Shown here: positions 3,351-43,656 of the stretch, piece after piece
Layout of the letters: every line of letters begins with the position of its first letter
Numbering within the stretch: the first letter of the stretch is position 1
Notes under the pieces: generated by a model
Databases searched by the model: none
The model's input: only the letters and a program-made list of their open reading frames with translations
Told to the model about the DNA's origin: nothing
Program-made: the position numbers and the translations under genes
Sequence record: OZ035734.1
Length of the DNA stretch: 44,234 nt
Reading direction: 5' to 3' (one strand)
Source of the DNA: Kagunavirus NRG857CP3

Positions 3351-3380
3351 ATAGTACCCTATTATATTGGTGTCTGCAAA
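3351..3380 (-). promoter_or_regulatory. sigma70-like promoter (TTGCAG-N17-TACTAT on minus strand) for moron 2802..3323
   Basis: Copy of conserved element CCAATATAATAGGGTACTATTC shared with promoters at 5237 and 14735. Confidence 0.5.
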
Positions 3381-5236: not shown

Positions 5237-5265
5237 ATAGTACCCTATTATATTGGGGTGTGCAA
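5237..5265 (-). promoter_or_regulatory. sigma70-like promoter (TTGCAC-N17-TACTAT, minus strand) with conserved leader ACACCAACAA
   Basis: Near-identical to elements at 3351 and 14735. Confidence 0.55.
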
Positions 5266-14734: not shown

Positions 14735-14763
14735 ATAGTACGCTATTATATTGGGGTGCGCAA
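14735..14763 (-). promoter_or_regulatory. sigma70-like promoter (TTGCGC-N17-TACTAT, minus strand) with conserved leader ACACCAACAA driving the island
   Basis: Third copy of conserved promoter-leader element. Confidence 0.55.
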
Positions 14764-25043: not shown

Positions 25044-25072
25044 AACTAAGGCCCCAAACGGGGCCTTTTATC
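25044..25072. terminator. bidirectional intrinsic terminator (AAACTAAGGCCCC-AAAC-GGGGCCTTTTATCT)
   Basis: Between convergent tailspike (+) and minus-strand replication operon. Confidence 0.7.
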
Positions 25073-25296
25073 TACTCTTCTGATAACTTTTCCAGTACAA
25101 ACGCCAGTTGCGCATTAGCGGCGTCTCTTTGCTGCCGTAGTCGTAGAACCTCTTCTTCAAGTTCCTTAACGCTCAAGGCAAGTTCAACTATCTCTGCGCT
25201 ACCCACAGTTTGGTACGCGCGCGGAGATATTTTCTTACCGCTTTCTAATACCTTAAAACCCAACGCGGCGATTTCACTAACACGACTGCTTCTCAT
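25072..25296 (-). CDS. hypothetical protein (coiled-coil)
   Basis: 74 aa, last gene of leftward operon. Confidence 0.4.
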   Translation of the reverse strand: MRSSRVSEIAALGFKVLESGKKISPRAYQTVGSAEIVELALSVKELEEEVLRLRQQRDAANAQLAFVLEKLSEE

Positions 25297-26723
25297 TTCT
25301 TACCTCGTCTCTTCATGTAATTAAGCAACTCTTCCTGGACGGATTTCTTCTCGTCCGTACGCGCGGCAACAACCTCGTCCAGCGTGTCTTTAGCGACGAT
25401 ATGATAGAGGAACACCGGGCGCTCGTGTCCAGCCTGTTTCTGGCGGACCGGGCCTATACGCTCGACAACCTGCAAATAGTGTTCAAGGTTCCAGCCTTGC
25501 GAGATGAACGCCAGATGATGGCCACCGTCCTGTAAATTCAAACCATGACCGGCTGACGCAGGGTGGACGCACAAAATCTCAATTTCACCACGGTTCCACG
25601 CTTCCATCTGCTTATTACCCTTAGCGCCTTTGGCAAACGCTTGTGCCTGCGGGAATCGCTTAAGGATGCGCTCCAGTTCGTGCTTAAACTGATAGGCTAC
25701 CAGTAACGGCGCACCCTGTAGTTCCTCAACAATGGACTCAAGCGCATCCAGTTTCGTGTCGTGCACTTTCTCCCAGTCTTTGGTTGCTTCGCCGTCTGGC
25801 CCTGACACATATACGGCGCCAGATGCAATCTGTAGGCACTTCGACGTCTTCGCCGCAGCGTTAGCCGCTTCGACTTCTCCGCTCTCCAGTTCCGCGAATA
25901 ACTTCTCCTCCATATCCATGTACGCCTGACGCGCTTTCTTCGGCAGGTCGATTTCAACCGGTACGATAATCGGCGCTTCGCATCCGAACCACTCGGCGGC
26001 GTCAATCGTGAGACTAATGTCCTTCATCTTCTGGTGAATTTCATTATCCGCGCCCGGGCGCGCATGATACTCACGCGCCATCGCCGATTTGCCTTTCTGC
26101 ACCGAGTTAAACCATCGGTCGGTGAATGCCGTGTACGACGACCCCAGGCGCTCGCCAGCGTCGATAAACCAGTTCTGGCCCCACAAGTCCTTGAGGCCGT
26201 TAGGCGATGGTGTGCCTGTCAGGTTAATGAAACGCTTAACCTTACCGAACGCCACCTTACTGAGCGCCTTTGCCCTTTTGCTACCGCCTGAACGGCTGCG
26301 GAACGATTTCAGCTTCGTGCTCTCATCGGCAACGATAACGGTAAAAGGCCAGTCGTCTTTGCCGTAGTAGTCAATCAGCCACTCGATAACTTCGTAGTTC
26401 GTGCACACCACGTTAGCATCCGACTCCAGCGCCGTGATGCGGCGCTTCTCTGAACCGGTCGCGTCAACAACACGCAGACACGGGAAGCCCCATTTCTCTT
26501 GTTCCGCGGGCCATGTACCGGATGCAACGCGCAACGGGGCGAGGATTAACACCCTGTCGTCATCATTAAGTTGGCCGTTGCGGAACAGTCGGTTGAGCAC
26601 CCACATCGTTGCGGAACTTTTGCCCGCACCCATCGAAGCCCAGATATTACAGCGCGGGTGTTGCAACATGAACGAAGTCATGAGCTTCTGGTACTCTCGG
26701 CGGATAAATTTAGACATACTCAA
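25293..26723 (-). CDS. SNF2-family ATP-dependent DNA helicase
   Basis: Walker A MGAGKS, IVADEST (DExx box), LTGTPSPN motif III. Confidence 0.8.
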   Translation of the reverse strand: MSMSKFIRREYQKLMTSFMLQHPRCNIWASMGAGKSSATMWVLNRLFRNGQLNDDDRVLILAPLRVASGTWPAEQEKWGFPCLRVVDATGSEKRRITALESDANVVCTNYEVIEWLIDYYGKDDWPFTVIVADESTKLKSFRSRSGGSKRAKALSKVAFGKVKRFINLTGTPSPNGLKDLWGQNWFIDAGERLGSSYTAFTDRWFNSVQKGKSAMAREYHARPGADNEIHQKMKDISLTIDAAEWFGCEAPIIVPVEIDLPKKARQAYMDMEEKLFAELESGEVEAANAAAKTSKCLQIASGAVYVSGPDGEATKDWEKVHDTKLDALESIVEELQGAPLLVAYQFKHELERILKRFPQAQAFAKGAKGNKQMEAWNRGEIEILCVHPASAGHGLNLQDGGHHLAFISQGWNLEHYLQVVERIGPVRQKQAGHERPVFLYHIVAKDTLDEVVAARTDEKKSVQEELLNYMKRRGKK

Positions 26724-26914
26724 TCCTTAACGTAGAGTACCAATTCCTTACGCCCGAACGCCGTAACGTTACCCGTTACGTCTTCAATTACCAGTTTACC
26801 GTTCGACTCGACGAACACCGTATCAACGGCAACAGGGCGACGGGTCTTAACGTTGAAAATCATGTCGCCAGGAACGATGTCACGTGCTGGTTTGCGGTCA
26901 TATTCGTGTTTCAT
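26720..26914 (-). CDS. hypothetical protein
   Basis: 64 aa, first gene after promoter 26948..26976. Confidence 0.4.
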   Translation of the reverse strand: MKHEYDRKPARDIVPGDMIFNVKTRRPVAVDTVFVESNGKLVIEDVTGNVTAFGRKELVLYVKD

Positions 26915-26944
26915 TTCTCAATTCCTTATATTGTTGGTGTGTGA

Positions 26945-27232
26945 CTAACTATAATAGTTCGCTATTAGGTCGTCAACCTGTTTAAACGAACCAACGACAA
27001 AAACATTCGCGCCGCGTTTACGCATCCGCGCATGCTCACGTAACTGGTGCGGGTCTGGCTTCGTGTTTTCGTCTTTCTTAACCTCAACGAACCAGACGAT
27101 GCCGCCGGGGAGAATTACCAGCAGGTCAGGAGCGCCCACTCTATTTTCGTAGGAAAGTTTACGAACGAGGCCCCCCAGGGCCTCGAATCGGTCTTTAGCG
27201 TATTTCTGCACACGCCCCTCAGGCGTACTCAT
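26945..27232 (-). CDS. VRR-NUC domain nuclease
   Basis: PD-(D/E)XK-type motif PDLLVIL...VEVKK. Confidence 0.7.
   Translation of the reverse strand: MSTPEGRVQKYAKDRFEALGGLVRKLSYENRVGAPDLLVILPGGIVWFVEVKKDENTKPDPHQLREHARMRKRGANVFVVGSFKQVDDLIANYYS
26948..26976 (-). promoter_or_regulatory. sigma70 promoter TTGACG-N17-TATAGT with spacer inverted repeat AATAG-CGAA-CTATT
   Basis: Consensus-like boxes read from minus strand; leader ACACCAACAA. Confidence 0.65.
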
Positions 27233-27317
27233 CTACGCACCCCTCACGTTTCGTATGCTCAACCCCGCAGCGCGGACAGATTAGGCAGTCTTCTTCGTAG
27301 AACCAGTAAATTTTCAT
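27219..27317 (-). CDS. small Cys-rich ORF (32 aa, CxxCxxC, possible zinc ribbon)
   Basis: Found by reading; overlaps VRR-NUC start; coordinates approximate. Confidence 0.2.
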   Translation of the reverse strand: MKIYWFYEEDCLICPRCGVEHTKREGCVDEYA

Positions 27318-27445
27318 TCAAGCACCCACAGATAAATCGCGATGAACATACCTAATACGGCGACCATCATGCCGTATTGGCCCTCGTGACAGTAGACACC
27401 GGCGGCAAACCCCGCCAGTACCGCAATACTCAGTTTACTTAGCAT
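27314..27445 (-). CDS. small hydrophobic ORF (43 aa, predicted membrane peptide)
   Basis: Found by reading; overlaps 3' end of polymerase gene; coordinates approximate. Confidence 0.2.
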   Translation of the reverse strand: MLSKLSIAVLAGFAAGVYCHEGQYGMMVAVLGMFIAIYLWVLE

Positions 27446-29687
27446 AACGCTTCATCTCCGCACCTTCCGCGACAAGAGGGAAGCCTTCTGCCCATTCCGG
27501 TAATTCGCACATCAATCGCCCCAGTTCAGCTACATTGTATTCCGGTAAATCCGGTGTCTCGCAGATAATTTCGTCATGTACGTGAAGCACAATCGGATAG
27601 CCGTTTGCTTCGACGTTCAGCAGCGCATTAGCCAGCAAATCACGGCACAGCGCCTGCGTGCAGTTTTCCACCAGTTTACCGGAGTAGGTGTACTGGAACC
27701 CCCACTGACGGGTTAACTGGTTTTCACCCTGGTACTTGATGCGCACGTTAGTTGACACCTTTCCATCTTCGTCTGTCTCTTTCGACACGCTTAACCCGAT
27801 GCCCGGGTAAGACATAACGCGACCCGACGGCAACGTCATGCGCAACCACCAACCAGCGACTTTGTTGCCGTTGTTGTCTGTCTCCACGTTACGCGAAAAC
27901 TTGACCCCCCGCGGCCCTGCAGTAAACTCTTTGCCAGGATTTCGGATAGCCGCCATTGCCGCGTCTTCAATATCCCGCCAGAAAGCTACGGTTTCCGGGT
28001 GGGACTCGCGCCACATACGCTTGATAGCGTCACAGGTACGCCACACTTTCTTATCAAGAATATACGAGGGTCTGTCATCCTTTTCGCCAGGACGTGGGGG
28101 GCGCTTAGCCTCCTGAATACGCGCCCACTCGTATCCGCGTGCGGTAGCAGCCCATATATGGTCAGGGAATGTCCCTTCCATTGTTTTTGCCATATCAACA
28201 AGGTTTAAGCCGAGGTTCTTAGCAAACTGAACGAAAGCACCGACACCGCCCGCGTAGCCGAGGCCCAATTCACAGGCTTTACCAATCTGGCGTAGGTCAC
28301 TACGGCTTTCGAGAATGTAATCAGGGTCCATGCCGAACATCTTACCCGCCGTTACGCAGTAAATATCCAATCCAGCACGGAAGGTATCCAGCGCGGTTTC
28401 TTCACCAGCAAGCCACGCAAGCCCACGGCCTTCGACGTTAGAGTAATCGGCGACGACAAACTTATGTCCGGATTCCGGTATGATGCAGCTACGCACCGTA
28501 GATGCCGTTAGTTTGGCTACATCAAAACGGCGATGTGCACGGCCTTTAAACAACAGGTCGATTCCGTAGGACAATGGGTGTGTTACTCGCCACCAGTCCT
28601 TCTCTGACATCCAGTCATAACGTACTTTCTTCTTTTTATTCTTCGGGTCGTCGTGATAGTACCCGCGCGCGAGGTTCTGCGGCTGGAAGCCTTTACCAGC
28701 AAATCGTAACGTACGCTTAGCTCCACCGTACTGGATGCAACCACGACGGCGGTCGTCAGACGAGCGGCCCAACAGCAGCGGGTTATATTTCGTTGACGCC
28801 GTGGACGCGGCCCCGAGGCGCATTTCGATAATCGTGCGGGCATCGTCAGGTAAATCATCGTCCGCCAACAAGTCATTCAGCGTTGACTTCTGTGCGTTGT
28901 GGATCCGGTGCGCAGGCGCAAGTTCACGCAGAATAGGCAGGAAATCTTTACCAGTAAGCGACCCGCCGTATTTGCGCTGGGCTTCCTCCTGTAACTGTGC
29001 CTTGTGCTTCTCCACGGCTTCAATCGCGGCTTCCGCCAGCGCGACGTCAACCTTAAACCCACGGTCGTTGATTAACTGGTCCAGTTCCAGTACGCGGTCC
29101 TCGAACTCGGAGTTACCCCAACGCGGTAGCTTATGGAATACTTCTCGCATCGCAGTGATGTCGCTCACGGCGTACTTGATAAACAAAGCCCACTCGTCTG
29201 GGTGTGTTTCGGCGGTGTAACGGCGGATTTTGTAGTTCTTCGGTGTCGGTTTAGAGAAACGCTTAATCAGTGCCTTGCCGCGTTTATCTTTCGCGTTGTC
29301 GGCGGATACGCCAAACACTTCGCACAATGCGTCAAGTGAACCCGGCAGCGCGTGACGAAACGCCCAAATCATCGTATCAATGGTGTTGCTTACAGGAATA
29401 TCAAAGCCCCAGCAATGTTTCATGATGAGACGATCGAACATTGAGCCGTTGTGCCACACCATCTTGATGCGACTGTTCGGTTTCACCAGACGGCGTAACG
29501 CGCGGTGCAAATCTCCCGGCATGTCGCTGCCGTCGGTGCAATCCCATACCTGTACAGGCTCGTCGTCAAAGGCATATGTGCAGATAAGCACTTCGGTTGA
29601 CGGGTGTTCGGCGTAAGCATAGGAACCGACTTTCTTTAAATCGATGTCGCTGTAGGTTTCAAAGTCTAAGAAGAGTAATTCTGGCAT
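27435..29687 (-). CDS. DNA polymerase I family (family A) with N-terminal 3'-5' exonuclease domain
   Basis: Exo I motif LFLDFETYS at N-terminus; 750 aa; C-terminal HVHDEI-type block. Confidence 0.85.
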   Translation of the reverse strand: MPELLFLDFETYSDIDLKKVGSYAYAEHPSTEVLICTYAFDDEPVQVWDCTDGSDMPGDLHRALRRLVKPNSRIKMVWHNGSMFDRLIMKHCWGFDIPVSNTIDTMIWAFRHALPGSLDALCEVFGVSADNAKDKRGKALIKRFSKPTPKNYKIRRYTAETHPDEWALFIKYAVSDITAMREVFHKLPRWGNSEFEDRVLELDQLINDRGFKVDVALAEAAIEAVEKHKAQLQEEAQRKYGGSLTGKDFLPILRELAPAHRIHNAQKSTLNDLLADDDLPDDARTIIEMRLGAASTASTKYNPLLLGRSSDDRRRGCIQYGGAKRTLRFAGKGFQPQNLARGYYHDDPKNKKKKVRYDWMSEKDWWRVTHPLSYGIDLLFKGRAHRRFDVAKLTASTVRSCIIPESGHKFVVADYSNVEGRGLAWLAGEETALDTFRAGLDIYCVTAGKMFGMDPDYILESRSDLRQIGKACELGLGYAGGVGAFVQFAKNLGLNLVDMAKTMEGTFPDHIWAATARGYEWARIQEAKRPPRPGEKDDRPSYILDKKVWRTCDAIKRMWRESHPETVAFWRDIEDAAMAAIRNPGKEFTAGPRGVKFSRNVETDNNGNKVAGWWLRMTLPSGRVMSYPGIGLSVSKETDEDGKVSTNVRIKYQGENQLTRQWGFQYTYSGKLVENCTQALCRDLLANALLNVEANGYPIVLHVHDEIICETPDLPEYNVAELGRLMCELPEWAEGFPLVAEGAEMKRYAK

Positions 29688-29703
29688 ATTATTTTCGACC
29701 CTT

Positions 29704-29732
29704 AGTAAAAAGGCCCAATGAAGGGCCTTAGT
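29704..29732 (-). terminator. intrinsic terminator on minus strand (AAGGCCC-TTCATTG-GGCCTTTTT)
   Basis: Stem-loop plus U tract downstream of SSB-like gene, upstream of polymerase start. Confidence 0.55.
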
Positions 29733-29748
29733 TAAATTGATTCAGATA

Positions 29749-30375
29749 TTAGCGGCGGCGACGTTCGCGGCGCGGTGCTTCATCTTCTTCGTCGTCTTCA
29801 AGGTCGTCGACACTTGCCGCGACGTTAGAACCGCCAAACGCTTTACCTTCGCCGACGTATTTAATCGCCAGCAGGTTAACACCGAGGACTTTGTATTTCT
29901 GGCTGAACCAGATTTCAACGCTTACGTTAGCGACGCAGCCGCTGTAAACCTGTTCACCTTCAATCTGTTCGCCGTCTACATTGAAGTCCTGCTCTACCTG
30001 AGTCTCACCTTTTTTAGAGGTTACAATCAGTGGCTGTTTCTGTGCCTTAGCCTTGAAGTAGAAGCCTTCCGGGAAGTCTTCAAACGGATTGTCGCGCTCT
30101 GCGATATCTTTAATTGCACATTTATCCATGTGCTTACCTTCGCCGTAGTTAGACTTCATCCACTTCTCGGCAGCAGCGGCTCCTAACGCTTCTTCAACTA
30201 CCGCGTAAACAGTGTCGTAGAGCGCATCGATTTGAGCATGGTCAGACGGCAGGATAATAGTTGCGCTGTACTGGCCTTTAGTGATTGAGCCATCATCGTT
30301 TTCACGGTCTTTTTCGCGTTCAAATACGTTAACCCATGCAGTGTTTACTTTACGCAGATTTAATTTCAGTCCCAT
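29749..30375 (-). CDS. putative ssDNA-binding protein (DUF2815-like), acidic C-terminal tail
   Basis: Acidic C-terminus DDLEDDEEDE then basic RRERRRR; paired with Cas4-like nuclease upstream (recalled family association). Confidence 0.4.
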   Translation of the reverse strand: MGLKLNLRKVNTAWVNVFEREKDRENDDGSITKGQYSATIILPSDHAQIDALYDTVYAVVEEALGAAAAEKWMKSNYGEGKHMDKCAIKDIAERDNPFEDFPEGFYFKAKAQKQPLIVTSKKGETQVEQDFNVDGEQIEGEQVYSGCVANVSVEIWFSQKYKVLGVNLLAIKYVGEGKAFGGSNVAASVDDLEDDEEDEAPRRERRRR

Positions 30376-30429
30376 CTTGATTTCTCGCTTTTCAGTTTAC
30401 TCCGGGAAGCTGCCCGGCCAGTGATTAGA

Positions 30430-30458
30430 ACTATAATAGTTAACTATTCAGGTGTCAA
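30430..30458 (-). promoter_or_regulatory. sigma70 promoter TTGACA-N17-TATAGT with perfect spacer palindrome AATAGTTAACTATT
   Basis: Consensus -35, near-consensus -10, 17-bp spacer. Confidence 0.7.
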
Positions 30459-30462
30459 CACT

Positions 30463-31719
30463 TTATTCCAGATCTTCTTCACTAACCTGATTCCACTCAG
30501 GACGTTTGTCGTCTGCCGTTGCGACACATGGCGCTCCGGGCTTACGAGTGATGAAGTCTTTCAGCTCTTCTTCCGGCACAACTTTAACAGCTTCGGTTGG
30601 CGTCATGAGCACTTCTTTAGTTAGCTTGTCGCCGTAGAGTTCTGCCACTTTCCCCGCGTCTTTCCACGCACGGTTGCCCATCTTACCTTCGACCAGCTTA
30701 TACCCCGGCACTTTCTTGCCAGAATGCAACGCGGCGGACATCGCTTTTTCAACCTTGTCAATGTGCTGGCGTAACAACGGCAGCTTCTCATACTCGGCGA
30801 CGAGTTGCCCTGGTGTCAGTTCCAGCGCAAAGTCGTCCTCCAGTTCCTCTGCCAGTACAGAATTAACCGTCTTCGTTCTGGCAGCGCACTGTTCTGAGAA
30901 CCTACACCACTGACAGCCATCGACCGACGGCTTAAAGTCTGACGCTTTCAGGTTCTTCTTACCACGGAAGTACGCGTCGAGTGCTAACAGTGCACGTTTC
31001 TGTGCGAACTTAGCGAACAGTTCCAGGCCTTCAACCGAGATGTCCCACTCCGACGCACCACCAGCGTACGGCTGGAAGATGACCAGACGAACAGTTGTTA
31101 TGTTATAACGTCTCTTGAGTCGGCGATAAACACCGAGAGCATAAAGCATAAGCTGCTTGTTTTCTTTCGCTTCGACACGATGCCGTCCGGTTTTCAGGTC
31201 GCCGATGATAAGCATGTGCTCGTCAGTGTTCGCCATCTCCTGAACGGCAACAAGGTCGGCGGTTCCGAACGTCTCAACGCCTTCATGACCCGGATGCAAT
31301 ACCTCAGTAAGATTGACACGCATCTCGAGCTTGGCATAAGTCGCAACGTCTATAATCGCTTTGCAGTAGTCGGTGTACTTGCGCACCTGCTCAATCATGT
31401 CCGCCGTAATCAGTACCGCGCCTTTCATCGGACTGATTAGTGCCTTAATCTGGCCTTTACCCTCATCCAGCACGTAAGCGCCGACTTCACGCTCTAACGG
31501 CAGCGCAGTACCTTTGATGTACTGGTTAAGGTGCATCTCAGCTATCGTGTGCATAGCTGTGCCTAATACCGCAGCTTTACCGGACGTGTTGGGAATATCT
31601 TTTTCACAGGCCAGTGACGCAGCACAGCTAAGCCACTTTTTAGCACCTGACGGTGACAGCAGGGCGTGCACATCGTTATTGCCGCCGCGTTCCTTTAAAA
31701 TCATACCCTGTTCTCCCAC
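30463..31719 (-). CDS. PD-(D/E)XK exonuclease, Cas4/RecB-like (DUF2800-like) with C-terminal Cys cluster
   Basis: C-terminal CQWCRFSEQC plus upstream Cys; nuclease-type motifs. Confidence 0.6.
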   Translation of the reverse strand: MGEQGMILKERGGNNDVHALLSPSGAKKWLSCAASLACEKDIPNTSGKAAVLGTAMHTIAEMHLNQYIKGTALPLEREVGAYVLDEGKGQIKALISPMKGAVLITADMIEQVRKYTDYCKAIIDVATYAKLEMRVNLTEVLHPGHEGVETFGTADLVAVQEMANTDEHMLIIGDLKTGRHRVEAKENKQLMLYALGVYRRLKRRYNITTVRLVIFQPYAGGASEWDISVEGLELFAKFAQKRALLALDAYFRGKKNLKASDFKPSVDGCQWCRFSEQCAARTKTVNSVLAEELEDDFALELTPGQLVAEYEKLPLLRQHIDKVEKAMSAALHSGKKVPGYKLVEGKMGNRAWKDAGKVAELYGDKLTKEVLMTPTEAVKVVPEEELKDFITRKPGAPCVATADDKRPEWNQVSEEDLE

Positions 31720-31973
31720 TGGTCAATCATATGTCGTGTCTTATGTTCGCAGTGCATAGCCCAGCCATACATCGACTCGAAGACATAAAAGTCAGGTTTG
31801 GCGAATGTAGTGCGCTTAATCTGCGACACGTGACGGCCCATATCTTTAGGCTGTGGTACTTTGCCTAAATAGGCCGTCTCTTCCATCTGGTGCGCACCGG
31901 ACGGCGCACGCAATAGCCATAGCGCCTCCGTGTTATCCCTCCGGTCGACGGCGCGGTAGAGTTGGTAAATCAT
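31701..31973 (-). CDS. hypothetical protein
   Basis: 90 aa ORF overlapping exonuclease start. Confidence 0.4.
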   Translation of the reverse strand: MIYQLYRAVDRRDNTEALWLLRAPSGAHQMEETAYLGKVPQPKDMGRHVSQIKRTTFAKPDFYVFESMYGWAMHCEHKTRHMIDQWENRV

Positions 31974-31987
31974 ATTTCCGACCCTCA

Positions 31988-32010
31988 GTTAAAGCGGCCC
32001 GAAGGCCGCG
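31988..32010 (-). terminator. stem-loop GCGGCC-CGAA-GGCCGC (weak terminator / attenuator)
   Basis: GC hairpin with short U run on minus strand. Confidence 0.3.
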
Positions 32011-32016
32011 AGATAG

Positions 32017-32514
32017 TTATTCTTCTTCGAAATACTTGTTCTTGATTGCCGTCAGGCGTTCCAGGTATTCAACAAGGTCTTCGTCTTTAATCGCGGCAAT
32101 CTTCATCTTCTTACCGGTGAACTCTTCCAGCAGTTCATCAGAATCGTCGCACGCGGCATCGCTCGGGCCTTCGTTAATCGCATCGTCGATAGCCTGAATC
32201 TGGTCACGCAGAGACTGGTAATCAATCATCTCGTCTACCTGCTCTGGTGTTACGGTTTCCTCTACTTTAGGTTTACGCGGCTTGCGTTTTGGCTTCTCTT
32301 CTTCTGCCGGTTTAGTGTCAACGATGCCTTCACCTTCGACCGGGATTTCTTTTGTTTTCTCGATTGTTGCGGTTTCTGCAACACCACTGTCGACGTCTTT
32401 ACCATATGGCGCAGTGATAGCCTTCGGCAGTTCAGTACGGCGTGCGCTGTTCGCAGCAATCAGTTCGTGTGCAACTACGAAACGTTCCAGTAATACTAAG
32501 AATTTCTCTAACAT
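32017..32514 (-). CDS. acidic hypothetical protein, first gene of leftward early operon
   Basis: About 24 percent D+E, acidic C-terminal half; directly downstream of consensus promoter. Confidence 0.5.
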   Translation of the reverse strand: MLEKFLVLLERFVVAHELIAANSARRTELPKAITAPYGKDVDSGVAETATIEKTKEIPVEGEGIVDTKPAEEEKPKRKPRKPKVEETVTPEQVDEMIDYQSLRDQIQAIDDAINEGPSDAACDDSDELLEEFTGKKMKIAAIKDEDLVEYLERLTAIKNKYFEEE

Positions 32515-32535
32515 TTGTTTCTCTCCTCTCGTTTG

Positions 32536-32564
32536 GTATGGGCTAACTATAATAGCGAACTATT
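32536..32564 (-). promoter_or_regulatory. sigma70 promoter TTGACA-N17-TATAGT with spacer inverted repeat AATAG-TTCG-CTATT
   Basis: Consensus boxes; leader AAACGAGAGGAGAGA. Confidence 0.7.
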
Positions 32565-32590
32565 CACATGTCAATGGGCTTTTCTAAAAT

Positions 32591-32620
32591 AATTAATATG
32601 GTACTATTCACATATCAACT
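32591..32620 (-). promoter_or_regulatory. second copy of TTGATATGTGAATAGTAC element (weak tandem promoter or operator repeat)
   Basis: Direct repeat of ACTATTCACAT(G/A)TCAA about 50 bp from first copy; -10 poor. Confidence 0.3.
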
Positions 32621-32638
32621 GACTAAGGAGTAATTGAC

Positions 32639-32854
32639 ATGCAACCATCTGAACTAGGCATCCGTGTAGAACAACGCCGTAAAGAACTCGGCATCTCCCA
32701 GCGCCGTCTGGCTGTCCTGACCGGAGTTTCCCAGGGCGCAATTAACCAGCTGGCACTCGGCGTAACTCAGGACGTCCGCCCGGCAACGCTGTTTAAACTG
32801 GCGGAAGTGCTGGAAGTAGACGCCAAGTGGCTGGCGTTTGGTGAAGGGGCTTAA
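32639..32854 (+). CDS. XRE-family helix-turn-helix transcriptional regulator (Cro/CI-like)
   Basis: HTH signature ISQRRLAVLTGVSQGAINQL; RBS AAGGAG. Confidence 0.8.
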   Translation: MQPSELGIRVEQRRKELGISQRRLAVLTGVSQGAINQLALGVTQDVRPATLFKLAEVLEVDAKWLAFGEGA

Positions 32855-32870
32855 TGCCCCTTTCTTTTTA
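32845..32870 (+). terminator. intrinsic terminator (AGGGGC-TTAAT-GCCCCT + TTTCTTTTT)
   Basis: Stem-loop and U tract overlapping the stop of the XRE gene. Confidence 0.6.
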
Positions 32871-33182
32871 TTGCAACTTATCAAGTTCTTCCAAATTCTT
32901 AATCGTGTGTTGCACATTCAGGTACTGAATCCAGGCAAAAAGCCATACGCTCACCGGAAAACTAACCACGGCAGCCGTTCTGAAAACAATGTGGATAGTG
33001 CACGCTATAATCTCCTTTACCGTCATATTCAGAACGTGGCGCAATTCTGCAACTTCCTCTAACGCTAGCTTGCAAGCAGGCCACCATTGGTTTGCTACGC
33101 AGGAAACGCATGTCAGGTATGTCGGGCGGTACCCCGACCTCACTGCTTTAAACGGGTTATCTATAAAATCGTAAATATTCAT
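32868..33182 (-). CDS. hypothetical protein (hydrophobic C-terminus)
   Basis: 104 aa ORF overlapping primase-helicase stop. Confidence 0.4.
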   Translation of the reverse strand: MNIYDFIDNPFKAVRSGYRPTYLTCVSCVANQWWPACKLALEEVAELRHVLNMTVKEIIACTIHIVFRTAAVVSFPVSVWLFAWIQYLNVQHTIKNLEELDKLQ

Positions 33183-35443
33183 TCCAAATCCTCCTCTGTC
33201 ACTGTCAACATTTCATTCGGTTCGTATATTGTCTTCGGAATCTTGTTATCCGTTATTCGGGTGTTCAGCCTGTAACGGCCAGGGATTATCTGATTGTTTT
33301 CGTCAGTCCCCGGAACAAGATACCCCGCCTCAACCATTTTCTTAATCTTCCCGCGTTCTATGGCTTCTTTGGAGTTGAACGCCTTTGCGTTGGGGTCGGA
33401 CTGTGCCAGCTTATTCGCTGCGGCTACCGTGATGCCTTCGTTGCCGTTGTAGGTTCCTTCCGCCAGCTCAAACGCTGCCAGTATCGTGGCTTCCGAATTG
33501 TTGACGGCGTTCTCTACGGTTTTACGTACGTTTTCTTTACCTTCCTTTGTCAGCCCTTCTTCCCGCTCTTTCTCCTCGTCGGTCTTGAACGGCTCGAAGC
33601 CCCACGGCATCAACACAAGCGCCTTGTGCGGTTCAGGCAGGTCGAGGTTAACGATTGTGCCATACTCCTCTGTGCTACCCAGGAACTCAACCGCGCGGTA
33701 CTCTTTCGGCGGCGGGGCTTCACGAAACTGTACCGACTCCAGCACCATACCAATCGTTTTCTGTTGCGGCCCGTGCTTAAATTTAGTGTGTGACACGTTA
33801 ATCTGGCGGTCGGTTGCACGCTCGATTGTCAGCTCCACATCGACACCCGCATACAATGCACCGCTGCCACGGGCTTTCTTTCCACCTTTCGGTGTGTGAT
33901 GGACTACACCAACGGCGGCTTTAGTCGCGTCGCGAACTTCTTTCAGGATGGCGATAACCTTACCCATACCGATTGCCGTTGATGAACTGTTCTCGTCGAA
34001 CTTATCGATGGTCAGGGCCAGCGTCTGGTTAAGGGTGTCAAATGCGACCATACCGATTGGATCATCGCCCGCGGTTTCGCGCATTAACTTAATCAGGCTT
34101 TTCAGTTTGCCGACTTCACCCATATCGATAAGGTGGATGTAGTTCTTTCCTTCCTCGCCGTATTTAGCCGCGAGTGCGTCGATACGTGTGCGTGTAGCCG
34201 CACCGCCTTCACCGTCGATATAAAAGTGATGGCAGCGCTGTGTATCAGCGCCCGCAAACCGATATCCGGCAGCGCTCAGGTACATCATGCCCAGGGTGTA
34301 GAAAGACTTATACGTGCCGGACTCTCCGACAATATCCCATATACAATCTGACGGCATGTAGCCTTCGACGACGAAATCGGCCTTTACAGGTTCCGGTAAC
34401 TCGTCTTCCTCAGAGTCGTCATCCTCCAGGTCGTCGAGGCTACATTCGACCGTCTCACGCGCACCCCAGCCGATGGCCTCAGCAACTTCACTGAACGGCA
34501 GCCCGGTCGCTTCGCAGGCGTATTTCCACACCTCTTTCGGCGACATGCCCTCTGTTGCCGTCAGGTCGGTGTCGTGAATCATGGTTACGTTAGGTGCGGC
34601 GTACCCCTCGCGCGGGAAGCACAGCAGGAAATCATCCGGGCGCGGTGTCGGGTCGCTGTAGTTCTCAGCGTGCTCAGGCGTCGCGGGCATCTTCAGACCG
34701 CGTGGCGTAATGACACCACCATACTCAAACGCCAGTGCTTCGAACGCGTCCGTAAACGCTGTGCGCAGTTCTTCCGGTATCTGGTAGTCGGATGCGCTGC
34801 TTACCTCGTAATCCGGGACTCCTTCCAGCAGACGGTCTGGGTCAATCAGGTCATTGCGGCGTGACCAGACGACCTCAGAGTTAACTGGTGGCAGGTACAT
34901 CGGCTGGGACAGGGTAAACCCGCTGCGGTCAGCACCCATGCCTTTAAAGAAATGCTCCAGCAGCCCGTGACGAACGCGGATGATATCACCGCCTTCTACC
35001 GGGCGCGCCAGCGGCATAACGACACGGAAACGCGGTGATTCGTCGGTGTGCGATGCCGTGGTGTACAGGCACATCGCTACACGGCTACGTTTAACCAGCC
35101 GCACGGCTTCCTGATACTCTTCGGGCGTCGCGCTGTCGAAATCCAGATAAGCCAGCGACGATTTGCTTACGGACGCATCACAGCGGTAGAAGAAGCCCCG
35201 GCGCGCCTGTTTAAACTCGCCTGTTTCCGGGTCTTTCACAGTGCTATGTGTTGAATCGCACGCAGCGGTAATGTAACCAGGCGCGGTCTTTGGGTTAACC
35301 CCGTCACGAACGGCGTCAAGTGGCTGGATTAACTCTTTCAGGTCGTCCAGTGTTGCCGTGTGGGTGGTTCTGACGTTTATATCCTTTTTCTCCGCCCGCG
35401 CGTTGCGACGGGACCACGAATAGGATAAAATTACATCGGACAT
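33179..35443 (-). CDS. primase-polymerase / RecA-like helicase fusion (replicative primase-helicase)
   Basis: 754 aa; central P-loop block GESGTYKS and RecA-like helicase motifs. Confidence 0.6.
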   Translation of the reverse strand: MSDVILSYSWSRRNARAEKKDINVRTTHTATLDDLKELIQPLDAVRDGVNPKTAPGYITAACDSTHSTVKDPETGEFKQARRGFFYRCDASVSKSSLAYLDFDSATPEEYQEAVRLVKRSRVAMCLYTTASHTDESPRFRVVMPLARPVEGGDIIRVRHGLLEHFFKGMGADRSGFTLSQPMYLPPVNSEVVWSRRNDLIDPDRLLEGVPDYEVSSASDYQIPEELRTAFTDAFEALAFEYGGVITPRGLKMPATPEHAENYSDPTPRPDDFLLCFPREGYAAPNVTMIHDTDLTATEGMSPKEVWKYACEATGLPFSEVAEAIGWGARETVECSLDDLEDDDSEEDELPEPVKADFVVEGYMPSDCIWDIVGESGTYKSFYTLGMMYLSAAGYRFAGADTQRCHHFYIDGEGGAATRTRIDALAAKYGEEGKNYIHLIDMGEVGKLKSLIKLMRETAGDDPIGMVAFDTLNQTLALTIDKFDENSSSTAIGMGKVIAILKEVRDATKAAVGVVHHTPKGGKKARGSGALYAGVDVELTIERATDRQINVSHTKFKHGPQQKTIGMVLESVQFREAPPPKEYRAVEFLGSTEEYGTIVNLDLPEPHKALVLMPWGFEPFKTDEEKEREEGLTKEGKENVRKTVENAVNNSEATILAAFELAEGTYNGNEGITVAAANKLAQSDPNAKAFNSKEAIERGKIKKMVEAGYLVPGTDENNQIIPGRYRLNTRITDNKIPKTIYEPNEMLTVTEEDLE

Positions 35444-35500
35444 GTGTATATTCCTTCAGAAAGTAATTTGGCCTCGGCGTTCTAGCGTCGGGGCTTTCTT

Positions 35501-35791
35501 TTAACGTTTAGCCAGACATTCCATTAAATGTGAATATTTTCTGTAATAGCAAGGAACTAAATCACACCCAAAATAATGATAAACATAAGCCAAGTGGTCG
35601 GTAACATCTATAGCGGCCGACATTGTGTTAAGACGGCGAAGGCTAATCAACCGTAATTCTTCCGTAATGCAAAATGGTTCATACGTATCAAGTTTGCAAG
35701 AAACGTTAAAACACAGAGCATAGCCGTCTTGTGCGGAGTAGACCAGAAATGCGCTGTCGTTCTCTTTATCGTGAAAAATTACACCTTTCAT
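35501..35791 (-). CDS. hypothetical protein
   Basis: 96 aa, RBS AAGGAGA. Confidence 0.4.
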   Translation of the reverse strand: MKGVIFHDKENDSAFLVYSAQDGYALCFNVSCKLDTYEPFCITEELRLISLRRLNTMSAAIDVTDHLAYVYHYFGCDLVPCYYRKYSHLMECLAKR

Positions 35792-35958
35792 TTCACATTC
35801 TCCTTAACCCACGCTTCTACTTTATTTCGGTCAAACGTACCCGGCATACGGCGGCCCATTACTTTAACGCTGCAATCAGGAAACTTCCCGCTTTTAATCC
35901 AGTTATTTATTGTCTGGCGAGTAACTCCGATTAATTCTGCTACTTCATTTATAGTCAT
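35788..35958 (-). CDS. small HTH DNA-binding protein (AlpA/excisionase-like fold)
   Basis: MTINEVAELIGVTRQTINNWIKSGKFP; start set at ATG after AGGAGA RBS (ORF track 36048). Confidence 0.5.
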   Translation of the reverse strand: MTINEVAELIGVTRQTINNWIKSGKFPDCSVKVMGRRMPGTFDRNKVEAWVKENVK

Positions 35959-35987
35959 TTCACGATCTCCTGTGTAAGATGTAGTGA

Positions 35988-36016
35988 AGTATAAAGCGGT
36001 AACTTTGTAAAAGCAA
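35988..36016 (-). promoter_or_regulatory. sigma70 promoter TTGCTT-N17-TATACT (minus strand) for HTH/primase operon
   Basis: Read from reverse complement; divergent partner of promoter at 36064. Confidence 0.5.
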
Positions 36017-36063: not shown

Positions 36064-36092
36064 TTGACTTTTACTTAAAAATATGCTAAGCT
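36064..36092 (+). promoter_or_regulatory. sigma70 promoter TTGACT-N17-TAAGCT with extended -10 TG (paralog of 5332)
   Basis: Near-identical to promoter at 5332..5360. Confidence 0.6.
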
Positions 36093-36335
36093 TCACTGAG
36101 CTTGTGAGATATCGCAAGCGACCGCGGAGCGGCAGGGAACGCAACGCGTGCCATTAGGCACTTGAGTGTAGTTCCGCTGGCGCTTTCGGAAAGGCCAAAG
36201 TCTATTGTTAATCCCGCCTAAATACCCAAGTCACTGATAATTAAAAGTTTCTATAGTTGCCGTAAGCAAGGTAGAGAGTACTTCACTCCGCTGGGGTGGG
36301 CTAACGCCCACCCACTGCGTTGCGTACTCTTTTAA
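36093..36335 (+). ncRNA. candidate structured leader RNA / small RNA, copy 2
   Basis: Core about 75 percent identical to copy 1 with conserved blocks CTGAGCTTGTGA, CAAGCGACCGCGG, TGAGTGTAGTT, TTCGGAA, GGCCA; followed by GC hairpin GGGGTGGGC-TAAC-GCCCACCC. Confidence 0.35.
36291..36335 (+). terminator. GC hairpin with distal U tract (weak terminator)
   Basis: Stem GGGGTGGGC/GCCCACCC; T run 16 nt downstream. Confidence 0.3.
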
Positions 36336-36371: not shown

Positions 36372-36400
36372 TTGCACACCCCAACATAATAGTATACTAT
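36372..36400 (+). promoter_or_regulatory. sigma70-like promoter TTGCAC-N17-TACTAT with spacer palindrome AATAGTATACTATT
   Basis: Same architecture as minus-strand morons' promoters; leader AAACGAGACAGAGGAG. Confidence 0.55.
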
Positions 36401-36434
36401 TCACTTATCGAAACGAGACAGAGGAGTGAGGGTT

Positions 36435-36620
36435 ATGTTTAAGAAGGGTCAGTTGGTGAAAACTAAGCGCAACGGTGTCGGGGTAATTAGGCGAGTTTCA
36501 CAGAAGGTAAAAGGTCGATATCTTCTTAGTAACCCGGAATGGGCTTTTGATATGTATTTCCGGGAGCCCGAAATAGTAGAACTCATCGGCAACAATTTTA
36601 AATTCAAAGGGGCGAAGTGA
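36435..36620 (+). CDS. hypothetical protein
   Basis: Start at ATG after AGGAG RBS (ORF track GTG 36426). Confidence 0.4.
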   Translation: MFKKGQLVKTKRNGVGVIRRVSQKVKGRYLLSNPEWAFDMYFREPEIVELIGNNFKFKGAK

Positions 36621-36823
36621 TGGAAGAATTATTTGAAGAGCTAAAACACCATGAACTGGAAGAAGTGCATTTCATAGCTAACCATTACAGGGTTACTTTA
36701 TTAGGCGGTTCGACTATTTCTTCCGGGGTATGGGAAGACCTGCTAAAAGTTTTGCGTGTGCTTCGAACGGCATCGAATCATGATGCTCGTGCCGACGGCT
36801 CTGAGGGAGGTTGCCGTAAATGA
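36617..36823 (+). CDS. hypothetical protein
   Basis: Overlapping stop/start GTGATGG. Confidence 0.35.
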   Translation: MMEELFEELKHHELEEVHFIANHYRVTLLGGSTISSGVWEDLLKVLRVLRTASNHDARADGSEGGCRK

Positions 36824-37077
36824 ATAACACTGAACTGGAAACTGTTGCCGAAAAACTGCATAAGGTGCGGGTAATGGCTCGGGGCGCAGGGCTGGAGCAA
36901 TTTTACAACATGTGGCGCACAGCGACGCGCGACCCTGATTTCACGAGAACAGGGTGTCTCTTGTATAAAGACGTTTATCCGATTCGTGCTCGCAAGGATT
37001 ACGGTTGGGTTCGTGAAACGCCTAATCTTTTGTGGTGTTGGGCGCATGGTGAGTTCTGGGTAAGGGTTAAGGACTAA
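36820..37077 (+). CDS. hypothetical protein
   Basis: Overlapping stop/start ATGA. Confidence 0.4.
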   Translation: MNNTELETVAEKLHKVRVMARGAGLEQFYNMWRTATRDPDFTRTGCLLYKDVYPIRARKDYGWVRETPNLLWCWAHGEFWVRVKD

Positions 37078-37080
37078 GTT

Positions 37081-37224
37081 ATGAGAGAAGCATTTGAACG
37101 GTGGGCCGTCGTCGAGGGTCTGCCGGTTAACAAGGGTTCGAAGAAAGAGTACCTGAACGTTAAGACGCGTCTCGCGTGGCGGGCGTGGAAAGCTGGTGTG
37201 TTGTCTGTTACGAGTCCGAGGTGA
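37081..37224 (+). CDS. small hypothetical protein (47 aa)
   Basis: ATG after AAGGA; found by reading. Confidence 0.3.
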   Translation: MREAFERWAVVEGLPVNKGSKKEYLNVKTRLAWRAWKAGVLSVTSPR

Positions 37225-37227
37225 GAT

Positions 37228-37452
37228 ATGGGCAAGTGGGTTAAGTGTAGTGAGCGGATGCCTGATAGCAATTGCTTGTATCTTTGCTGGGGGACGTATT
37301 TTGAAGGGGGTGAGCCAGGTTACATTCCATCTTATTTCTTCGCCCATCAAACCAATGGATGTGTGGAGTGGCAGCCGGTAGAGGATGACTGCAATCCTCG
37401 CGAAGTAAGCATAACTCACTGGATGCCGTTACCGGAGCCGCCGGAACAATAG
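37228..37452 (+). CDS. DUF551-like protein
   Basis: N-terminal WVKCSERMPD motif characteristic of DUF551 (recalled). Confidence 0.45.
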   Translation: MGKWVKCSERMPDSNCLYLCWGTYFEGGEPGYIPSYFFAHQTNGCVEWQPVEDDCNPREVSITHWMPLPEPPEQ

Positions 37453-37465
37453 TTTGGGATTTTAC

Positions 37466-37500
37466 TGAGTGACTTACGCTGCTACACAGCAGCGTATCAT
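37466..37500 (+). terminator. intrinsic terminator (ACGCTGCT-ACAC-AGCAGCGT + TATCATTTTTCTCATTTTT)
   Basis: Perfect 8-bp stem and U-rich tail. Confidence 0.65.
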
Positions 37501-37566
37501 TTTTCTCATTTTTGTTCTATTTCACCAAACGCAACAATCGAAGCGACTATTGCAGGAGATGCAACA

Positions 37567-37851
37567 ATGACAGACAGAGAGAAGATAGAATTCTTACGCG
37601 GCTACATGACGGGCGTAGGCCATACCGACGGTACGCCATTCAGTGATGCAACACTAACCCTGAATAGCGGTCGTTCGTGTGATATGTATTACATGCGCGA
37701 AATTGAAGGGTTACTGGCGCACCTGAATATCGTCGGGGTTCTTGGAGCGCCGTCCCCGAGCGATGTGTTCGTGTACCGCTGGTTAAAGGCGAACAGAGTT
37801 ATTGACGCCTTCTCCGCGTTGCAGGAGATGCAACAATACAAACACCAATAA
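37567..37851 (+). CDS. hypothetical protein
   Basis: 94 aa ORF, RBS GGAG. Confidence 0.4.
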   Translation: MTDREKIEFLRGYMTGVGHTDGTPFSDATLTLNSGRSCDMYYMREIEGLLAHLNIVGVLGAPSPSDVFVYRWLKANRVIDAFSALQEMQQYKHQ

Positions 37852-37858
37852 AATTTAC

Positions 37859-37887
37859 TTGCACACTAAGATAGAATAGGCTACTAT
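37859..37887 (+). promoter_or_regulatory. sigma70-like promoter TTGCAC-N17-TACTAT with spacer repeat AATAG-GCTA-CTATT
   Basis: Leader ACAAACGAGAGGAGAGA precedes ATG. Confidence 0.55.
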
Positions 37888-37918
37888 TCATTTACACAAA
37901 CGAGAGGAGAGACCGAAG

Positions 37919-38644
37919 ATGAGTAACAAAAACGAAGTATTCGAGTATCTGATTGACCAGCTACGGCAGCAGGTAAATAAGAAAGATGTGACATCCTTCA
38001 ATGTATCTGTGCGGATATCAGACCTTGATGAGGTCAAGCAGGTAATCCACAACCTACAGCAGCATATCGCTGGTAAGGACGACGAAATACGTGTGCTGAA
38101 AGACAGACTACGGCAGCAGCTAGAGGTCGTAGATGTAGTGGGTGAAATCAAACGGTGGAGTATTGACCGTAGTATTGCTGGCCGCGGTAACTATACCGAC
38201 GAGGAAAACGCCGTAATCGATGCTTACATCGGCCTGGAGCACGACCCGTACAAGCAACAGTGCGAAGACCTGGCGCATGAGGTGCAGTCACTTAAGAATC
38301 AGTTACGTGATGCGTCGGCGCAGATTAAGGAGTTGCATAAAGGGCTTGAGTATATTGGGGGCGAGTACAGACGAGCACTTGATTACGATCTTAGCGATGA
38401 ACCTAAGCAATCTGGTTGCCGTAAGGGATACACCCAGAAATCATGCTGGATTGAGTGGTCAGGAGGAGCTTGCCCTGTGCCGCGCGGAACACTTGTAGAT
38501 GTTATTTACCGCGACGGGGAAACCTTATGTGGCTTGCCTGCTGATGAGCTTAACGACACGGAAAGAGATGCTAGCGTCTGCTTTTGGCGACACAATGGTA
38601 TGTCTAATGACATAGTTCGTTACCGTAAGGCCGTGCGCCAATGA
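37919..38644 (+). CDS. hypothetical protein, coiled-coil N-terminus, conserved Cys/Trp-rich C-terminal domain (possibly Ea22-like)
   Basis: C-terminal block WIEWSGGACPVPRGTLVDV; family assignment from memory only. Confidence 0.4.
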   Translation: MSNKNEVFEYLIDQLRQQVNKKDVTSFNVSVRISDLDEVKQVIHNLQQHIAGKDDEIRVLKDRLRQQLEVVDVVGEIKRWSIDRSIAGRGNYTDEENAVIDAYIGLEHDPYKQQCEDLAHEVQSLKNQLRDASAQIKELHKGLEYIGGEYRRALDYDLSDEPKQSGCRKGYTQKSCWIEWSGGACPVPRGTLVDVIYRDGETLCGLPADELNDTERDASVCFWRHNGMSNDIVRYRKAVRQ

Positions 38645-38841
38645 CCAGCATCTTATTTATATGGGTACTGACCGCAGGCCGGTTACAACTCGCGGCAACA
38701 GAAACGTTTTACTCACTGGAGGCGTGCCAGGCAGCGGCACGCAACGCAGAGAACGCGCACTTCCTGTTTCAGGATAAGCCGATTGATACCGAGGTGCGCG
38801 CAACATGTTCAACGAAACGATTAGGTAAGCAGGAGAAATAA
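38641..38841 (+). CDS. hypothetical protein
   Basis: Overlapping stop/start ATGA. Confidence 0.35.
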   Translation: MTSILFIWVLTAGRLQLAATETFYSLEACQAAARNAENAHFLFQDKPIDTEVRATCSTKRLGKQEK

Positions 38842-38842
38842 G

Positions 38843-39124
38843 ATGGTACAGAGATACGATTTACAAGAAGACTGGGTTACCGGACATATTGACTTAGAGA
38901 AAGATACCGACGGCGACTGGGTTAGCTACGAAGACTACGCGGAGCTTGCGCGTAAATTTAATGAGCTTAAGGCATGGCGTACGCGGATACTTAATGACGC
39001 CTCCGACTCTCTGACACGGGCGGAGAAAGCGGAAGCCGAGGTACAGAAATACAAAGACCAGTTCCCGGATTACGTCGAGTGCCCGAACTGTGGGTCGTTT
39101 ACATATGTGGAATGGGTGGAATGA
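38843..39124 (+). CDS. hypothetical protein with C-terminal CxxC
   Basis: RBS AGGAG; ECPNCG motif. Confidence 0.4.
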   Translation: MVQRYDLQEDWVTGHIDLEKDTDGDWVSYEDYAELARKFNELKAWRTRILNDASDSLTRAEKAEAEVQKYKDQFPDYVECPNCGSFTYVEWVE

Positions 39125-39372: not shown

Positions 39373-39414
39373 TTATCCAACTGAACAACATCATGAAAGC
39401 AGGTATCATTCAGC

Positions 39415-39747: not shown

Positions 39748-39822
39748 ACAACTATTAGGATAATTCCTACCCGTGGTATCCTCCAGTTACTGCATACTTA
39801 ATACGCACCTGGAGGATTAATC

Positions 39823-40862: not shown

Positions 40863-40928
40863 CACCTAAGATTAATCCGACGATACTTAAATCACCTCCT
40901 GTTCCATCCCTCTGCTCTCCAGTTTTAT

Positions 40929-40958: not shown

Positions 40959-40980
40959 ATCTATTATTTGCAATGACTAG

Positions 40981-41009: not shown

Positions 41010-41042
41010 TACTCCATCGACAACGAGAACGGAGTAGAGAAG

Positions 41043-43288: not shown

Positions 43289-43317
43289 TTGACGTCTGAA
43301 TAGTATGCTAGTATAGT
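43289..43317 (+). promoter_or_regulatory. sigma70 promoter TTGACG-N17-TATAGT
   Basis: Consensus-like boxes; leader AACAAACAGAGAGAGAAC. Confidence 0.6.
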
Positions 43318-43604: not shown

Positions 43605-43628
43605 AGCCCTCTACGGAGGGCTTTTCTG
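43605..43628 (+). terminator. intrinsic terminator (AGCCCTC-TACG-GAGGGCT + TTTCTGT)
   Basis: 7-bp GC stem and U-rich tail. Confidence 0.6.
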
Positions 43629-43656
43629 TACATCCCGCCCAATCCCCTTATATAAT
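43627..43656 (+). promoter_or_regulatory. candidate late promoter with perfect -10 TATAAT and weak -35
   Basis: TATAAT at about 43651..43656; poor -35 suggests activator dependence. Confidence 0.35.

Follow-up and report, generated by a model that had tools for sequence, protein, structure and literature searches.

Why do promoters scattered over the genome of Kagunavirus NRG857CP3 share one inverted repeat, AATAG-N4-CTATT, and what might read it? The window analysed here (44,234 bp; sequence record OZ035734.1) is essentially the whole genome of this Escherichia coli phage, a Kagunavirus of the Guernseyvirinae. Its gene order follows that of phage K1G, and its replication module is about 89% identical to those of K1G, K1H and K1ind. 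An original prediction, made from the letters alone, held that the repeat is an operator set in the spacers of near-consensus sigma-70 promoters, that the only obvious candidate for its repressor is a single XRE-family helix-turn-helix (HTH) protein, and that the two would amount to a global early-to-middle switch. Our analysis argues that the repeat is indeed an operator under selection of its own, and suggests, with less certainty, that the 434-Cro-like XRE protein is what binds it.

A motif search across the window, the check that the original prediction had proposed, returned eight perfect copies of AATAG-N4-CTATT where dinucleotide shuffles gave an expectation of 0.01. Allowing up to two mismatches raised the count to 29 (15.6 expected), and among the additional copies only those at 32595 and 43299, with one mismatch each, lie in promoter contexts like those of the perfect copies. 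This gives ten promoter-linked sites in total, eight perfect and two with one mismatch, each followed 26-59 nt downstream by a start codon that has a ribosome-binding site. The motif also emerged from an unbiased count of spaced palindromes, in which AATAG-N4-CTATT ranks first, terminators aside, in K1G and Jerseyvirus BPS11Q3 as well as in the window. The perfect 14-bp palindrome that had been claimed for the promoter at 30430 is present at 30435-30448 (AATAGTTAACTATT). Because the outer flanking base is T or G in 20 of 20 half-sites, the symmetric element is 16 bp long, KAATAG-N4-CTATTM. Rfam gave no match at the palindromes; its sole match in the window at the gathering threshold was an int-alpA RNA at 14782-14846.

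The promoters that carry the palindrome fall into two architectures (Table 1). In class A (TTGACA-N4-AATAG-N4-CTATT-ATAGT), the spacer is taken up by the palindrome, the last T of which starts the -10 hexamer TATAGT. In class B (TTGCAC-N10-AATAG-NNTA-CTATT-CA), it sits 6 bp further downstream and lies across the -10. We take TACTAT, at 17-bp spacing, as the class B -10 because the last two N4 bases are TA in every class B site and not in class A. In either class one half-site supplies part of the -10 hexamer, and both classes have the -35 and -10 hexamers of a sigma-70 promoter at a spacing of 17 ± 1 bp, with 10-11 of 12 consensus matches in class A and 7 of 12 in class B (TTGCAC-17-TACTAT). 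Outside the palindrome, the class B copies have about 45 bp more in common (TTGCACACCCCAAtAT...CTATTCAttACACCAACAAGAGGAG), with 26-33 nt between the end of the palindrome and the start codon, and a ACACCAACAAGAGGAG-like leader is common to several promoters of either class.

A consensus scan independently recovered the near-consensus promoters with 17-bp spacers that had been proposed at 26948, 30430, about 32546 and 43289; these are the four class A promoters, found as TTGACR-17-TATAGT. The promoters at 36372 and 37859, described in the original prediction as near-consensus as well, belong to class B and were missed by the scan, and in both the palindrome extends across the -10 and is not confined to the spacer, as had been thought. 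A supposed minus-strand promoter at 32591 is poor (TTGATA-17-TAATTA) and reads better on the plus strand, as a class-B-like promoter of the XRE gene. The copies named at the outset are all real, but the list was incomplete, since three class B copies (3350, 5236 and 14734) outside the range it covered had been missed. A third register is found at the immunity gene of Jerseyvirus BPS11Q3 (TTGCAT-N7-AATAG...). As the palindrome occurs in three registers relative to the -35 and -10 elements, it is not part of a fixed promoter spacer. For class A its centre would fall at about -18.5, and for class B at about -12.5.

Table 1. Promoters, operators, candidate regulators and modules in the 44,234-bp window.
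Feature	Coordinates	Strand	Details
Perfect palindromes, start positions	3350, 5236, 14734, 26953, 30435, 32551, 36388, 37875		
Class A promoter, operator 26953-26966 (AATAGTTCGCTATT)	26948..26976	-	TTGACG-17-TATAGT; 64-aa gene and SNF2-type helicase
Class A promoter, palindrome 30435-30448	30430..30458	-	TTGACA-17-TATAGT; DUF2815 gene, DNA polymerase and genes beyond
Class A promoter, operator O1 32551-32564	32546..32574	-	TTGACA-17-TATAGT; 165-aa gene, 90-aa gene, PD-(D/E)XK exonuclease
Class A promoter, one-mismatch operator 43299-43312	43289..43317	+	TTGACG-17-TATAGT; inserted cassette with 76-aa gene
Class B promoter, operator 3350-3363	3351..3379	-	TTGCAG-17-TACTAT; 173-aa accessory gene
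Class B promoter, operator 5236-5249	5237..5265	-	TTGCAC-17-TACTAT; 83-aa accessory gene
Class B promoter, operator 14734-14747	14735..14763	-	TTGCGC-17-TACTAT; superinfection-immunity gene, exonuclease, polynucleotide kinase, ATP-binding protein
Class B promoter, operator 36388-36401 over -10	36372..36400	+	TTGCAC-17-TACTAT; small genes from 36435 on
Class B promoter, operator 37875-37888	37859..37887	+	TTGCAC-17-TACTAT; 241-aa gene, then genes towards lysis cassette
Degenerate operator O2 (AATATGGTACTATT), one mismatch	32595..32608	+	overlaps class-B-like -10 TACTAT 32602-32607 facing XRE gene
XRE/HTH_3 protein, 71 aa, 434-Cro-like	32639..32854	+	candidate operator-binding repressor
HTH_17 protein (AlpA/excisionase-like)	35788..35961	-	Pfam
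Operator-free promoter, HTH_17 and helicase-primase genes	35988..36016	-	TTGCTT-17-TATACT, read from sequence
Operator-free promoter, terminase/structural operon	43627..43656	+	TGTACA-18-TATAAT; fronts small terminase gene
Head and tail module	30-25043	+	interrupted by short minus-strand gene blocks
Replication module	25072-35961	-	
Small genes, lysis genes, small terminase subunit	36435-44234	+	

We gathered 37 related loci through the XRE protein and collected the orthologues of each site by means other than a search with the motif, leaving 29-37 unique orthologous sequences per site on which nucleotide diversity was computed. Diversity is 0.007-0.016 in the half-sites, 0.009-0.05 in the -35 hexamer and 0.04 in the rest of the -10. 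It rises to 0.24 in the central N4 and 0.14-0.20 in the rest of the spacer, so across about 35 related phages these positions vary 15-20 times more than the half-sites. The left half-site of class A lies wholly in the spacer and touches neither hexamer, yet it is conserved like the -35. Given that the half-sites are conserved like hexamers while the centre between them drifts, the palindrome is selected independently of the core promoter, as expected of an operator. The conservation of the class A left half-site, taken with the three registers, makes a promoter-intrinsic or purely historical explanation unlikely. The pattern points to a symmetric DNA-binding protein, which at positions of about -18.5, -15.5 and -12.5 would always block RNA polymerase, and we consider it very probable that a trans-acting factor binds the palindrome. 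The operator idea of the original prediction thus finds good support in the sequence evidence, with its three registers, fixed half-sites and drifting centre.

Which protein might that factor be? Pfam scans of 30 window proteins yielded two DNA-binding candidates, the XRE protein and an HTH_17 protein, so the XRE protein is not the only obvious candidate that it had been taken for. The XRE protein matches HTH_3 (PF01381) with 47.2 bits against a cut-off of 23 (E=2.3e-12), and of the proteins with solved structures, 434 Cro (1zug; E=2e-6) is closest to it in sequence; the alignment spans its whole length, and both proteins are 71 aa long. Its structural model (predicted local distance difference test, pLDDT, 77.6) has helices at residues 5-17, 21-28, 32-39, 48-57 and 62-66, and the top Foldseek matches to that model are the 434 repressor and 434 Cro (1pra, 2cro), with template-modelling (TM) scores of 0.72-0.78 at 36-40% identity. 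Within the genus the protein is 94-100% identical, compared with about 88% for the surrounding DNA. Among genus members, even those at 78% identity, helix 2-3 (GVSQGAINQLALG) is all but invariant, and changes are found mostly in the N-terminal arm, in the residues just before helix 3 and at the C-terminus. A large protein search for homologues with the same recognition helix in unrelated phages gave only Kagunavirus-type relatives, at 78% identity or more.

The operators of phage 434 span 14 bp, arranged as 5+4+5, with outer bases that are conserved and a centre that varies. The candidate operators described here, at 14-16 bp and 5+4+5, have the geometry expected of such dimer sites. The XRE gene moreover adjoins two of them, O1 (32551) and O2 (32595). 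Read rightwards, O2 has a TACTAT -10 and stands 30 nt from the XRE start codon, measured from the palindrome, like other class B sites; an alternative promoter, TTCACA-16-TAAAAT, is possible. In Jerseyvirus, a TTGCGT-17-TACTAT promoter is clearly recognisable before the XRE gene, and a degenerate operator occupies the corresponding position. Since in both Kagunavirus and Jerseyvirus a weakened operator lies over a TACTAT that faces the XRE gene and probably belongs to its promoter, negative autoregulation through O2 may well operate. We regard the XRE protein as the best candidate for the palindrome binder, and we lean towards the view that it binds there and acts as a repressor.

The operator-bearing promoters reach across much of the genome. 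They drive the operons for the DNA polymerase, the exonuclease and the SNF2 helicase; the leftward block of immunity, exonuclease and polynucleotide-kinase genes; two strain-specific accessory genes inside the head module; and two rightward operons, of which the second runs on in the direction of the lysis genes. The copies at 3350, 5236 and 14734 front minus-strand genes embedded in the structural module. One of these, the 173-aa gene (2802-3323), matches a PHROG annotated as RusA-like and is absent from K1G and Jerseyvirus, as is the operator-fronted gene at 4956-5207. The class A promoter with operator 43299 and its 76-aa gene (phrog_10134) form an insertion of about 320 bp (approximately 43281-43602) that is absent from K1G and most relatives. 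Among the relatives, perfect operators at about 40 loci belong to promoters that stand before 27 or more different gene families, a good number of which are singletons, and with downstream families this varied the promoter-operator unit behaves as a portable cassette.

Two promoters lack the operator. One precedes the HTH_17 and helicase-primase genes, and the other precedes the terminase/structural operon. The core of the latter (TATAATCCC) is conserved in K1G, Cornellvirus and Dhillonvirus, with a variant (TACAATCC) in Jerseyvirus, and this second promoter is likely the late one. From 43627 to 43700 on the plus strand, the promoter is followed by a conserved CCC and by leader hairpins. The distribution of operators is consistent with early and middle transcription being turned down in Cro-like fashion while the late operon is spared. 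The early-to-middle switch of the original prediction is a plausible hypothesis.

We propose that the 16-bp operator, overlying the core of ten host sigma-70-type promoters of a virulent Kagunavirus, is most likely bound by a dimer of the XRE protein, to the exclusion of RNA polymerase. The protein would accumulate from its own promoter and then turn down the operons for replication and recombination, the accessory genes that point leftward within the structural module, and the rightward small-gene and lysis operons. Finally, it would limit its own synthesis through the weaker, one-mismatch operator over its own -10. The helicase-primase genes and the terminase/structural operon would escape through their operator-free promoters. 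The promoter-plus-operator unit would be modular and, by fronting many different accessory genes in relatives, would plug new genes into the same circuit. This would not be a lambdoid CI/Cro bistable immunity switch, which combines a CI partner with integration functions. Neither a CI-type partner (S24 peptidase or oligomerisation domain) nor integration genes are annotated in K1G, BPS11Q3 or FSL SP-031, and the Pfam scans of the 30 window proteins found no CI-type partner or integration function.

Several observations weigh against this proposal. An operator (37875) is also present in the promoter ahead of the lysis genes, which makes a simple early-off/late-on switch less than obvious. The literature that we searched contains no transcriptomic, start-site, promoter or operator study for the Guernseyvirinae, only genome reports and PHIRE lists. 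The Jerseyvirus XRE protein is 51% identical and has the recognition helix SQSLITH in place of SQGAINQ, yet the half-site TAATAG is the same (TAATAG-N4-CTATTA), which weakens the assignment to XRE. Cornellviruses keep an XRE protein (43% identical, TQSAISH) but lack the AATAG motif, and the related palindrome that they do carry, TATTA-N6-TAATA, has no copy near their XRE gene. Covariation of helix and operator across genera is ambiguous, with a different helix and the same half-site in Jerseyvirus, and a different helix and a one-base variant palindrome, in three copies, in Cornellvirus. Phyletic profiling of all window proteins against six genomes found five proteins that match the distribution of the motif, and the HTH_17 protein is the only recognisable DNA binder among the five. 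A 64-aa protein (26720-26914; 94-95% identical across Kagunavirus and Jerseyvirus), a 47-aa protein (37081-37227; 88-95%) and the HTH_17 protein (62-75%) share the phyletic pattern of the motif, being present exactly in the AATAG-bearing genera and absent from Cornellvirus.

These distributions, and a half-site that stays the same while the XRE recognition helices differ, would suit an operator bound by some other factor, be it one of these phage proteins or a host regulator shared by E. coli and Salmonella; the site at 30435 also resembles the E. coli trp operator, ACTAGTTAACTAGT. We nevertheless consider a binder other than XRE rather unlikely. The HTH_17 protein is disfavoured by a recognition helix that varies (62-98% identity) and by the replacement of its gene with unrelated genes in two relatives, L039 and L007, which keep 6 and 3 palindromes. 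Domain scans found no DNA-binding domain in the 64-aa and 47-aa proteins. The TrpR operator consensus has two CTAG cores 8 bp apart, centre to centre; the sites here have ATAG...CTAT instead, CTAG is absent from all eight perfect copies, and the N4 is not conserved. Nor does the consensus of any other host regulator considered (ArgR, NrdR, MntR and others) fit. A palindrome of 14-16 bp in a 5+4+5 arrangement is, by comparison, what a 434-type HTH dimer is expected to recognise, and the XRE protein is the sole such protein found.

There might also be no trans-acting factor, if the palindrome were a legacy of duplicated or recombined promoter cassettes, or a spacer or -10-proximal feature preferred by host RNA polymerase. 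The sequence that class B copies share beyond the palindrome does point to common descent of cassettes, these cassettes front many unrelated genes, and a half-site helps to form the -10 in both classes. Such an explanation is improbable in our judgement: it would have to accommodate orthologous half-sites that stay fixed beside a centre and spacer drifting so much faster, a class A left half-site as conserved as the -35 although it lies off both hexamers, and a palindrome found in three registers, and the symmetric T/G outer flank has no promoter rationale. We give very little credence to two further roles, that of a promoter for a phage-encoded RNA polymerase and that of an RNA or DNA hairpin. 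The former has a precedent in print, since the genome paper of Kagunavirus fBC-Eco01 lists the motif as seven PHIRE promoters ascribed to phage RNA polymerase, with the consensus tgAATAGTa-ccTATTat-T (PMC9825357). It is contradicted by gene content: no RNA polymerase gene is annotated in K1G, BPS11Q3 or FSL SP-031, and every window open reading frame (ORF) of at least 400 aa without a longer ORF across it corresponds to a structural or replication protein. The motif is, besides, embedded in sigma-70-type -35/-10 pairs at 17-bp spacing. The hairpin role was rejected on the weakness of the predicted stems, 0 to -2.5 kcal/mol at nine of the ten sites and -6.2 kcal/mol at 37875.

The circuit could extend beyond Kagunavirus. 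Cornellviruses have three promoter-associated copies of TATTA-N6-TAATA (14066, 26544 and 33280 in L003; 7674, 14869 and 37446 in L043), a one-base half-site variant with the same 16-bp geometry whose right half forms the -10 TAATAT. We tentatively entertain the possibility that the Guernseyvirinae, strictly virulent siphoviruses, run most of their host-type promoters under one Cro-like protein by means of a portable promoter-plus-operator cassette. Under such a scheme the operator would occupy at least three registers, the cassette would travel with accessory genes and wire new genes into the temporal programme, and TAATAG in Jerseyvirus and TATTA-N6-TAATA in Cornellvirus would be variant operators, while the unrelated palindrome TTGGTTGCA of Dhillonvirus would point to the same design principle. 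This different repeat or palindrome (TTGGTTGCA / TGCAACCAA) is carried by promoters at 6453, 19118 and 20661 of Dhillonvirus JL1 (L004), a genome without an XRE homologue, and may represent an analogous operator-in-promoter design with another regulator. Cornellviruses also have GAATAA-N-TTATTC three times near the spanin and scaffold genes. At the place of the HTH_17 gene, L039 (12559-13144) and L007 (3624-4209) encode a 47-aa CxxC...CxxC protein, suggestive of a zinc finger, and a 149-aa protein.

Some further elements of the window deserve mention. At 40976-40989 on the plus strand, downstream of the endolysin gene, a partial palindrome (ACTAGTTGACTATT) overlaps the -35 of a TTGACT-17-TATATT promoter; it is also present in K1G (40925) and in a Jerseyvirus (L002 10799), and may be a low-affinity operator or a coincidence. 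The int-alpA RNA match is on the plus strand, just over the gathering score (36.6 versus 35.8 bits). It has the leftward class B promoter on one side and the tail-assembly-chaperone gene on the other, in a stretch where a promoter is required for the tail operon; around 14768-14776 there is a possible extended -10 (TGtTAGAAT). Two paralogous ORF-free elements on the plus strand, 5332-5567 and 36064-36335, are 77% identical over an alignment of about 290 columns, mostly in the first 200 nt or so. Each has its own TTGACT-17-TAAGCT promoter. They share a stem, and their apical hairpins differ by compensatory changes. The first ends in a clear terminator and the second in a GC-rich hairpin without a directly adjoining T-run. 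Neither matches an Rfam family, and folding gave z-scores of -1.5 and -3.6; possibly the two are phage small RNAs. Immediately before the first element, 5270-5330 holds TATTCC/TTATTCC direct repeats (5282, 5288) and an inverted GGAATAA (5312), and a similar array occurs in Cornellvirus L003 at about 25400-25450.

The motif itself is already in print. The fBC-Eco01 paper (PMC9825357) makes no mention of a palindrome, of two architectures, of an operator reading or of the XRE protein. The Golestan genome paper gives seven PHIRE promoters of its own. We found nothing on the palindrome, the two architectures, the operator reading or the link to XRE in the literature searched. Kagunaviruses and Jerseyviruses rank with the phages isolated most frequently for use against E. 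coli and Salmonella in therapy and food safety, and their gene regulation is essentially unstudied. If our proposal is true, one 71-aa protein and one 16-bp site would explain the coordination of about ten operons, and the "phage promoter" annotation of genome reports would be corrected. It would also provide a compact, orthogonal repressor/operator pair with a ready cassette for placing payload genes under native control, and a clear example of a virulent lineage that has retained a Cro-type regulator with no CI partner beside it.

The mechanism proposed here would be a repressor-operator system of the 434/lambda-Cro type with a dispersed regulon reminiscent of that of P1 C1. With 434 Cro and the 434 repressor, its closest matches in sequence and structure, the XRE protein shares a five-helix HTH_3 fold and, with 434 Cro, a length of 71 aa; its candidate operators, like those of 434, have conserved outer bases around a variable centre and overlap core promoters, probably including the regulator's own. 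The phage described here, however, comes from a virulent group with no CI partner or integrase annotated in its relatives; it has at least 10 operators over the whole genome rather than two triplets (OR1-3, OL1-3); and its half-site, in a putative pairing of protein and operator, is AATAG rather than ACAAG. The proposed logic resembles that of lambda Cro, a small early protein repressing the early promoters that made it and so moderating early expression, although lambda Cro has a different fold and acts only at PL and PR (and PRM), and lambda late genes are switched on by Q antitermination, for which no equivalent has been identified in this phage. In P1, too, one phage repressor has operators scattered before many operons and overlapping their promoters, but these are asymmetric 17-mers bound by a monomer, and C1, of a different protein family, maintains lysogeny. 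The cassettes also recall the PeSL units of T4-type phages, in which a short conserved promoter module stands before many variable accessory genes, suggesting modular shuffling; a PeSL unit consists of a promoter and a stem-loop, and no role as a repressor operator is known for it, whereas the repeat described here includes a symmetric site of the kind bound by protein. Set beside these systems, the proposed circuit is of an ordinary type, unusual mainly in its breadth and in its place in a virulent lineage without a CI partner.

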